From Octopus vulgaris (Eukaryota), in NCBI GenBank assembly GCA_951406725.2, contig OX597839.1, forward strand, positions 33,170,001 through 33,234,000: a stretch of 64,000 nt of DNA, read 5' to 3'. The position numbers and the translations under genes are program-made. The notes beneath the pieces were generated by a model, which did not search any database, was not told the DNA's origin, and worked only from the letters and a program-made list of their open reading frames with translations. Of this stretch, positions 4,201 to 7,200 are shown piece after piece. Within the stretch, counting starts at the first letter, position 1. Every line of letters begins with the position of its first letter.

Positions 4201-7200
4201 TATTATTATTATTGTATAATTATTATTAATATTATTATTATTAATATTATTATTATTGTATAATTATTATTATTATTAATATTATTATTATTATTATCAT
4301 TATTGTAGTTTTTATTGTGTTTGAGTTGAGTTTTAGTTGAATTTAATTTGGACATTTTCGAAACGGTCGTCGATGGCTTTCAAGCTGCTCAAGCTGGTTC
4401 CGGTTCTGCCCAGAGCCATCGTGTCGTTGGTCCGGCTTGTCGTGAAGACGGTGCACTACATCAGGGCCCAGTTTAACGCCTTTCATTTCTTGACACAGAG
4501 AGCTGTCTGCTATTTCTGCTCCGACCGCATCTGGGGTCTCGGCCGTCAAGGGTACAAATGCATCAACTGCAAGCTGTTAGTGCACAAGCGATGCCACAAA
4601 CTGGTGAAGCAAGTATGTGGAGAGATGCAGGTGGTGAGTTGGTTTTCCTTTTTCTTGTTGTTGTTGTTTGTGAAGGTTCGTAGCCTGGTGGTAATGGTGT
4701 TGCACTCACGACAGTGGGTTCAATCCCCAGCCTGGGTAGTACGTTGTGTTTTTGTGCAAAAACACTTCATCTTTTGTTGTTCTGTGATCTTTTCAACACT
4801 TGACATATGACATTCTCGTGCACCTGTGGAGGCGCGTGGCTTAGTGGTTAGGGTGTTGAACTCATGATCGTAAGGTTGTGGTTTCGATTCCTGGACCGGG
4901 CGATGCGTTGTGTTCTTGAGCAAGACACTTCATTTTCACATTGCTCCAGTCCACTCAGCTGGCAAAAGTGAGTAATACTGTGTCGGACCGGTGTCCCGTC
5001 CAGGTGGGGGAATTTCTACACCACTGAAACCGGGAAACCGGCCCTTATGAGCCTGGCATGGCTCGAGAAGGAACATTTATTTATTTTTATTTGTATATAT
5101 ACTTGTGCACCTGTACAGGTAATGTCAATTTAATGGACGGTGTGAGCTTAATGTACAACACAAATATTTGATCACTATAAACAAATCATCCATATGGATG
5201 TCCAGCAAGAAATTACAGAACCCTTGTCGGTCATCTATGACAGCAGAGTCCACCATACTGGTGTTGTTGTTATTATTGTTGTGATTGTTGACTGTTGTTG
5301 TTATTTTTAATAATGTTGATGTTACAGCTGTTGTGGTTGTGTTCTTGTTTGATGTTGTTATTTTTGTTGTTGTTACCGTTGTCAGTATTGTTACCTCTAA
5401 TATTTCCATTATATTAATCAATTAAATTAACTTCTCACATTATTGACCACTCCACATCATTGTGTATGATAACAATAGCAAACATGTCCTGTTTCTTCAC
5501 CTGTAACTACTTTCACTCCTTCACTCTCCTGTCTTGTTCCTTCACCTGTAACTACCTGTCCCTCTCCTTCACTCACCTGTCCCACTCCACTCTCCTGTCT
5601 TGTTCCTTCACCTGTAACTACCTTTCCCTCTCCTTCACTCTCCTGTCCCCTCTCCTTCACCTGTAACTACCTGTCCCTCTCCTTCACTCACCTGTCCCAC
5701 TCCACTCTCCTGTCTTGTTCCTTCACCTGTAACTACCTTTCCCTCTCCTTCACTCTCCTGTCCCCTCTCCTTCACCTGTAACTACCTGTCCCTCTCCTGT
5801 CCTCTCTCCTTCACCTGTAACTACCTTTCCCTCTCCTTCACTCACCTGTCCCCTCTCCTTCACCTGTAACTACCTGTCCCTCTCCTTCACTCACCTGTCT
5901 CCTCTCCTTCACCTGTAACTACCTGTCCCGCTCCATCACTCACCTGTCCCCTCTCCTTCACTTGTAACTACCTCATAATAATAACCCCATCTGTCATTCT
6001 TCTTCCAGGCATAAATCCAAACTCCATTCCATCTGTCTTCGCTGCCTTCTTCATCTTTGACCCCAACATTCTTTCACAGTTCCTTCCTTCCGTTCTCCCA
6101 TAATTTTATTCCCCTCTACAAGCCACAGTCCAAGGAATCCCTTTTTCCCCTTGAAAGAAGCAGCGACATTACTCAACTCCCCAATCTCCTGGAATATGGT
6201 CTTCTGGCACCACCAACTCACAGATTTCCATCATCTTTCATCCCACCCCCAAATTCCTGCTCCTTTTAACCCATCTCTCACAATTCCTCTCGACCATTCC
6301 CACTTTTCCTTTCTTCATTATTCTTAATGCTTTCTCATCTTCTTTCTTGATGACCACCTCTACTGATCCAAAAAATGGATTCCCCTCTCTCTGTCAGCAT
6401 CCCATTCATTCTTCACATCCAACAGCTTTCCTCTCTTTATACATCTCTCACCTGCCTTCCTTTAATTCCCGCTAGGTCCACAATAATTTCTCTCGCTTCA
6501 TCATTTCACCCTGTTTCGTTTTTCATGATGTTCATATTTCAACATTTTGATCTTTCGGTAAGAAATTTGCTTCCAAACCACCTGGTTCTGACTCTTATTC
6601 TATCGTTCACTCTTGTTGAACTGCTGAGTGAGAGGGACATAAACACACCAGCACCAGTTGTTACACGATGGTGGGAAACAAATCGACACACACACACACA
6701 CACACACATATCATGGACTCTCCCGTCATTAGACAACGTAGGAGGGTTCAGGAACAACCACACAGATGAATTGTTTATTGTGATCAAATGTTTGTGTTCA
6801 CTAAGCTCACTCGATCCATCAAATTGATATTACCTGTACAGGTGCACCATGTGCCTCATGTCAGATGACGAAATGATGCCAGAGCAACATGAAATGAAGT
6901 GCTTTGCTCAAGAACACAACACAACGCCTGATCTGGGAATCGAACCCACGATCTTGCAATCACGAGCACAACACCCTAACCACTAAGCCTGTCATATATA
7001 TATATATATATATATATATATATATGTATATATATATATGTATGTATATATATATATGACAGGCTTCTTTCACTTTAGTTTCCATCTACCAAATCCACTC
7101 ACAAGGCTTTGGTCGGCATGAGGTTGTAGTAGAAGACACTTGCCCAAGGTGCCATGCAATGGGACTGAACCCAGAACCATGTGGTTGGGAAGCAAAGTTC

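Follow-up and report, generated by a model that had tools for sequence, protein, structure and literature searches.

A candidate alternative N-terminus at the 3' end of an intron in the Octopus vulgaris atypical PKC gene

The gene and the open frame ahead of its C1 exon

The window analysed here is a 64-kb stretch (C26:33170001-33234000) of the 2.8-Gb Octopus vulgaris genome, and all positions below are those of the window unless the contig is named. Its exons are 85-100% identical to Octopus aPKC records, and PB1, pseudosubstrate, a single atypical C1 and the kinase domain are found in one gene, all on contig C26, as in an atypical PKC. The features that matter for what follows are these:

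C26:33156814-33166195, + strand: PB1 exons, upstream of the window on the same contig, located by sequence matches
1164..1249, + strand: exon of 86 nt carrying, by its translation, the pseudosubstrate, the first C1 His and the first C1 strand; ends in phase 0; skipped by the candidate alternative form
4309..4372, + strand: candidate 5' UTR, from the upstream limit of contig cover, with no ATG inside; the start would lie at or upstream of about 4310
4335..4336, + strand: in-frame AG, seen in the sequence, that would serve a rival 54-aa insertion; no usage in contigs
4373..4498, + strand: candidate coding segment for an alternative N-terminus; its ATG opens 42 codons that share the frame of the C1 exon (composition, helix prediction, contigs)
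4469..4498, + strand: canonical acceptor signals (branch-point-like TTTAAC, pyrimidine tract, AG), overlapping the final 10 codons of the alternative frame
4499..4633, + strand: C1 exon, 45 codons, common to both forms, with seven of the eight zinc ligands, an in-frame Met at 4625 and a GT at 4634
7704..7778 (end approximate), + strand: first hinge exon, next for both forms, located from loose contig ends
29224..36990 (span), + strand: six kinase-domain exons of the same gene, from matches to aPKC records

The candidate segment thus forms the last, 3' part of the intron that separates the pseudosubstrate exon (1164-1249) from the C1 exon (4499-4633). An AG at 4497-98 precedes the C1 exon. No stop interrupts the 54 codons of 4337-4498, of which the final 42 begin at the ATG at 4373. 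An earlier note on this DNA had proposed that these 42 stop-free codons, in frame with C1, give a PKM-like isoform an N-terminus that bypasses PB1 and the pseudosubstrate. Its coordinates were verified on the sequence, and the pseudosubstrate and the first C1 zinc-ligand His do sit on the previous exon, as it had stated.

An open frame of this kind is by itself at chance level, an in-frame ATG at least 42 codons upstream being present at 3.8% of 4266 YAG-by-phase sites, and three of the 11 other exon starts of the gene have an in-frame ATG 36-39 codons up. The description of the segment as GC- and CpG-rich holds in part: its GC content is 0.54 against 0.40 for the intron at 1250-4336, although other stretches of the intron reach 0.51-0.55, and its seven CpG (observed/expected 0.76 against 0.43) represent only a modest rise.

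The distribution of G and C over codon positions, which the earlier note had not mentioned, is far less common. Over codons 2-42, G or C occupies positions 1, 2 and 3 in 23, 12 and 32 of 41 codons (56, 29 and 78%), in exactly the C1 frame, a contrast with a base-shuffle p of 5e-5 for a statistic that was picked after the sequence had been seen. The same contrast was equalled by seven of 46,593 non-exon windows and by none of 6,882 GC-rich ones, and those seven overlap at a single place (35692-35725), inside a high-copy mobile element. Third-position GC is 32/41 in the segment (26/31 outside the part that holds the splice signals) as against 134/303 in ten other exons of the gene (Fisher p 5e-5), and it is also raised in the C1 exon (31/45), so that the 42 codons and the C1 exon resemble one compositional unit. 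The coding-like signal ends at the ATG: the 12 codons of 4337-4372 lack the pattern, with G or C at the first position in one of 12. ATG 4373 is the first ATG downstream of 4309, and its start context has a T at -3.

The mobile element (about 35618-35997) is young and MITE-like, lying within TA runs and ending in short terminal inverted arms; 40 of its 1004 candidate copies were scored, all 99-100% identical.

Predicted peptide, C1 remnant and conservation

The earlier note had called the peptide free of acidic residues and likened it to an amphipathic membrane anchor or a mitochondrial presequence. The first point is correct for the 42-mer, which has neither D nor E, but is unremarkable, as 64 of 473 intronic stop-free 42-mers are alike. 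Amphipathicity, in turn, is borne out: the helical moment, a statistic also chosen with the sequence in view, exceeds chance for 18- and 22-residue windows (shuffle p 0.004-0.016; matched by 0-3 of the 473 intronic peptides), while for 11-residue windows it is not significant (p 0.09-0.17). Basic and polar residues (K4, K7, R14, S18, R21, K25, H28) line one helix face, and AlphaFold2 predicts a helix over residues 14-41, with pLDDT 83-96 over residues 11-40. Mitochondrial presequences have a net positive charge and no acidic residue, and the composition of the peptide is compatible with one, although this does not discriminate. A very hydrophobic helix face suits a membrane anchor better than a presequence, and the face here has a mean hydrophobicity of 0.7 on the Fauchere scale. 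The segment is predicted to encode a membrane-binding amphipathic helix.

A C1 domain binds zinc through eight ligands in the pattern H-x12-C-x2-C...C. The alternative product would keep 45 C1 residues and lack His1, and so would not have all eight: Gln33 occupies the His1 position, and His28 and His38 lie 18 and 8 residues ahead of the first Cys. In its AlphaFold2 model the helix spans the position of the first C1 strand, and a comparison of that model with known structures gave no match at E 0.001 or better, and none to C1. A control model of the canonical PB1-pseudosubstrate-C1 region of a cuttlefish has the first strand and matches C1 domains at E 6e-4 to 1e-3; the two models are unequal in length and alignment, which makes the contrast a hint. 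Without His1 and the first strand, the C1 of the alternative product is predicted not to fold as C1.

The N-terminus was then looked for in other animals. All 31 cephalopod protein records compared, ten O. sinensis isoforms among them, are without it. Three protein searches and a full HMMER scan returned no homolog of the 42-mer, with matches confined to the C1 part, and phmmer against 322 fetched proteins found none either; the best ESM Atlas score (0.75) is a lead only. For the DNA we began with 80 loci and dropped one without a motif match and those with the pseudosubstrate directly upstream, no AG or fewer than 123 upstream bases, which left 55, collapsed to 43 distinct other-animal loci. 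None of these looks cephalopod, and this control speaks to distant conservation only. An in-frame ATG never lies more than 21 codons up from their C1 exon, and the codon contrast of the octopus segment is never reached (highest 0.32, against 0.35 in octopus). Given its absence from these 43 loci, the alternative N-terminus is, at the level of sequence, not pan-animal.

Two of the loci, L050 and L075, are near-identical over the 123 bases ahead of the C1 exon, where they combine a GC contrast of 0.29-0.32 with in-frame stops; the contrast there has probably arisen by chance. Two other origins of the octopus segment were tried and rejected. A paralog or repeat can be set aside, the segment being single copy by DNA and its other protein matches (E 2.7 and 3.7) containing stops. 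A duplicated pseudosubstrate exon found no support from a profile of 36 peptides (shuffle p 0.84).

RNA-type assemblies over the segment

The stretch is held by 20 runs from 10 studies, none of which is recorded as RNA. Four runs are treated here as RNA because their contigs are spliced: X1-X3 from organism A and X4 from organism B, drawn from four studies and two species labels. They were chosen because they held the stretch, and X1-X3 are the three highest-share holders among the 12 RNA-type holders of organism A, with shares of 0.67-0.81; the other nine have a share of 0.44, about what the C1 exon alone would give. Alignment was confined to 4300-4680, with the following outcome:

X1, contig over 4350-4525, crosses 4498/4499 into the C1 exon
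X2, contigs over 4309-4503, plus two variants over 4474-4526; cross into the C1 exon
X3, contig over 4320-4452, a single adapter-flanked fragment that stops before the C1 exon
X4, contig over 4398-4526 (organism B), one differing letter in 129; crosses into the C1 exon

Contigs cover the segment in all four runs, which were selected for containing the stretch. Contigs of X1, X2 and X4 cross 4498/4499 by 27-28 letters; no contig reaches the bridging bar of 31 letters on each side, and an overlap this short is what the merging of two paths in an assembly graph would give. As X2 has two variant contigs over 4474-4526, its cover there would not come from one duplicated molecule. The splice from 4633 to 7704 is present in all four runs, where it is seen for the C1 exon, not molecule by molecule for the alternative form, and the canonical splice from 1249 to 4499 is present in X1, X2 and X3.

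Contigs cannot show transcription start, strand or level. Depth is 2.8-16.8 over the segment and 10-34 over the C1 exon, figures not usable as an expression level. Within the aligned range no contig covers the sequence upstream of 4309 or the silent control stretch at 4635-4680 (only 46 bases), which is not taken as evidence of a start. The contigs begin just past an AT-rich (TAT)n tract, at which an assembly would stop in any case. A TATAAA at 4129 is at chance level (three such motifs against 2.4 expected), and among 40 scored candidates out of 189 the stretch 3040-4200 has matches elsewhere only in its CA/TA repeats.

The contigs differ from the window by substitutions at 4388, 4390 and 4420, all silent in the C1 frame and peptide-changing in both other frames. 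The chance of three jointly silent substitutions is 0.044 when matched for type and 0.016 unmatched.

The main rival explanation of these contigs is a retained or slowly spliced intron, in which the pre-mRNA keeps 1250-4498 after the next intron has been removed, the frame is untranslated and its composition is accidental. Frames this long are, as noted, not rare; read-through products of the C1 exon are common among the predicted proteins of other animals; the contigs start at a natural assembly break; and most listed runs hold only about the share of the C1 exon. Such an account nevertheless gives no reason for the GC3 bias, which is in frame and sets in at the ATG, for the amphipathicity or for the three silent substitutions, and the same codon bias occurs in 0 of the 43 other-animal introns. 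We regard it as a real but unlikely possibility. The simplest account to cover codon bias, helix, silent variants and unspliced contigs alike is an alternative first exon by which the C1 exon is lengthened on its 5' side, and it is fairly likely that the 42 codons from ATG 4373 are translated.

The proposed isoform and its relatives

The alternative N-terminus, unannotated and lineage-restricted, is probably real. In the reading we prefer, to which we give a probability of roughly 0.55, a lineage-restricted internal first exon yields an aPKC of about 500 aa that is without PB1 and pseudosubstrate, has a broken C1 and a new membrane helix, and is disinhibited. Transcription would begin inside the intron in some samples, at or upstream of about 4310, presumably from an internal promoter. 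The RNA would continue unspliced across 4498/4499 into the C1 exon, for which 27-28 letters are seen, and then splice from 4633 to the hinge exon. Starting at ATG 4373, the protein would be 495-505 aa long, as computed from the annotated downstream exons. PB1 binds Par6. The pseudosubstrate is a polybasic membrane-targeting region, according to the accessible part of PMC7337507; C1 is a module for lipid binding that, like the pseudosubstrate, makes contact with the kinase domain, according to that of PMC10435729. With C1 predicted not to fold, targeting through Par6, pseudosubstrate and C1 would be lost, and the basic amphipathic helix is predicted to take its place by binding membranes; the outcome would be a Par6-independent, largely disinhibited, membrane-tethered aPKC governed by transcription and not by cleavage. 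We observe the sequence, its composition, the contig cover and the splice usage, and we infer the promoter, translation, C1 misfolding, membrane binding and raised activity.

A real isoform might still not be a disinhibited kinase: what remains of C1, or the helix, could continue to repress it, or the product could be a scaffold, a mitochondrial import substrate or an unstable by-product. The net positive peptide without acidic residues resembles a presequence, although the strongly hydrophobic helix face is more that of an anchor. Excerpts of PMC7104321 describe C1 as inhibiting PKC-zeta even without the pseudosubstrate, so that raised activity depends on C1 being truly broken, and the PB1-less human aPKC-zeta III works independently of kinase activity, as far as the accessible part of PMC13385426 goes. 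On the other side, His1 and the first C1 strand are missing, and removing C1 is reported to increase basal activity (Graybill 2012, as cited in PMC6539039). We hold a product of this sort to be distinctly improbable.

The earlier note had also offered the TTTTAG acceptor ending at 4336 as a way of inserting 54 aa into C1, which would leave PB1 and the pseudosubstrate in a full-length kinase. The acceptor is in frame and none of the 54 codons is a stop, yet no usage appears among the aligned contigs: none of the four runs has a loose end at 4337 (X1 and X4 do not reach the site), X2 and X3 read unspliced through 4336 (28 and 17 letters), an extra base at 4354 in X3 (one fragment, maybe an error) stops the frame after 46 codons and spares the ATG frame, and the first 12 codons are those without a coding pattern. 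This insertion is very unlikely. It is scarcely more credible, indeed slightly less so, that the internal transcript is real and PKM-zeta-like, with ribosomes skipping the weak ATG at 4373 (T at -3) in favour of Met 4625, which is in frame and placed, like the start of PKM-zeta, at the end of the C1 exon (accessible parts of PMC6539039 and PMC7104321), to make hinge and kinase only, as three out-of-frame ATGs come before it, the Met is present in three Octopus-labelled records and absent there from the other four cephalopod records compared, and the coding signature of the 42 codons would go unexplained. The records without Met 4625-4627 are argonaut and squid/cuttlefish-like ones, two of which have a Met earlier in C1.

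The preferred isoform, translated from ATG 4373, can be set beside several known forms. Vertebrate PKM-zeta is likewise a short aPKC transcribed from within its gene, PRKCZ, and without PB1 or pseudosubstrate; it has a separate exon 1' spliced to exon 5, a hinge Met start and no C1 (accessible parts of PMC3517905 and PMC7104321). The octopus first exon would instead lie one intron further down and lengthen the C1 exon on its 5' side, and the protein would have a new 42-aa leader and keep part of its C1. The predicted product does lose PB1 and pseudosubstrate, whose exons lie upstream of ATG 4373, and its first ATG is 4373 and not a hinge Met. A dedicated internal promoter with its own 5' end, constitutive kinase activity and expression restricted to the nervous system also mark the PKM-zeta type. 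The octopus form is PKM-like in logic and is not a member of PKM-zeta. The alternative N-terminus of the earlier note thus has in its favour the codon bias, the amphipathic pattern, the silent variants and the unspliced contigs of RNA-type runs, while its likeness to PKM is an analogy only, with 45 C1 residues kept and a new leader added.

In sea urchin Pl-aPKC-1 (PMC3113769; record P0106) and human aPKC-zeta III (PMC13385426), as the accessible portions of both papers describe them, a short alternative N-terminus replaces PB1 and Par6 is not bound, as proposed for octopus. These forms keep the pseudosubstrate and the whole C1 (checked here for P0106), whereas the octopus product would lose the first and break the second, and so falls outside the PB1-less short aPKCs. 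Short hydrophobic-basic N-termini that replace PB1 with the pseudosubstrate kept occur in annelid, sea urchin and amphioxus aPKC records (P0018, P0034, P0049, P0051, P0058, P0060 and P0106), and alternative aPKC leaders seem to recur across bilaterians. Among molluscs, aPKC-deltaC1 of Helix lucorum also loses C1 function at the transcript level, through the same exon, but there the 132-nt C1 exon is skipped by splicing and no new leader is mentioned in the accessible part of PMC6539039. Aplysia PKM Apl III is a further molluscan aPKC without the regulatory domain; it arises by calpain proteolysis at hinge splice inserts, and 5'RACE found no alternative start (Bougie 2009, as cited in excerpts of PMC6539039 and PMC3517905).

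A bolder and doubtful extension is that octopuses independently evolved a transcript-encoded, persistently active aPKC, in which an internal promoter and an intron-derived anchor remove PB1 and pseudosubstrate and break C1. Such a kinase would arise without calpain and would be a candidate for sustaining long-term plasticity in the neurons of octopuses. Transcript-encoded PKM has been described as an innovation of vertebrates or chordates, and the PKM of Aplysia as the product of cleavage (accessible parts of PMC9282427 and PMC3517905). If this holds for octopus, invertebrates too would have a counterpart of PKM-zeta, as a convergent exception in an animal noted for learning, and sequence from an intron would have become a structured targeting peptide. 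A search of the open-access literature found no paper on such an octopus aPKC isoform.

Further variation was observed downstream in the gene. Two hinge micro-exons (11488-11520 and about 17995-18030) vary among Octopus records and recall the hinge inserts in which Aplysia has its calpain site; by that analogy, a cleavage route to PKM may exist here too. An alternative exon at 47766-47995 adds about 76 residues in the kinase C-lobe. It is part of an insert of about 105 aa in annotated O. sinensis and O. vulgaris isoforms, and its GC3 is also high (52/74).
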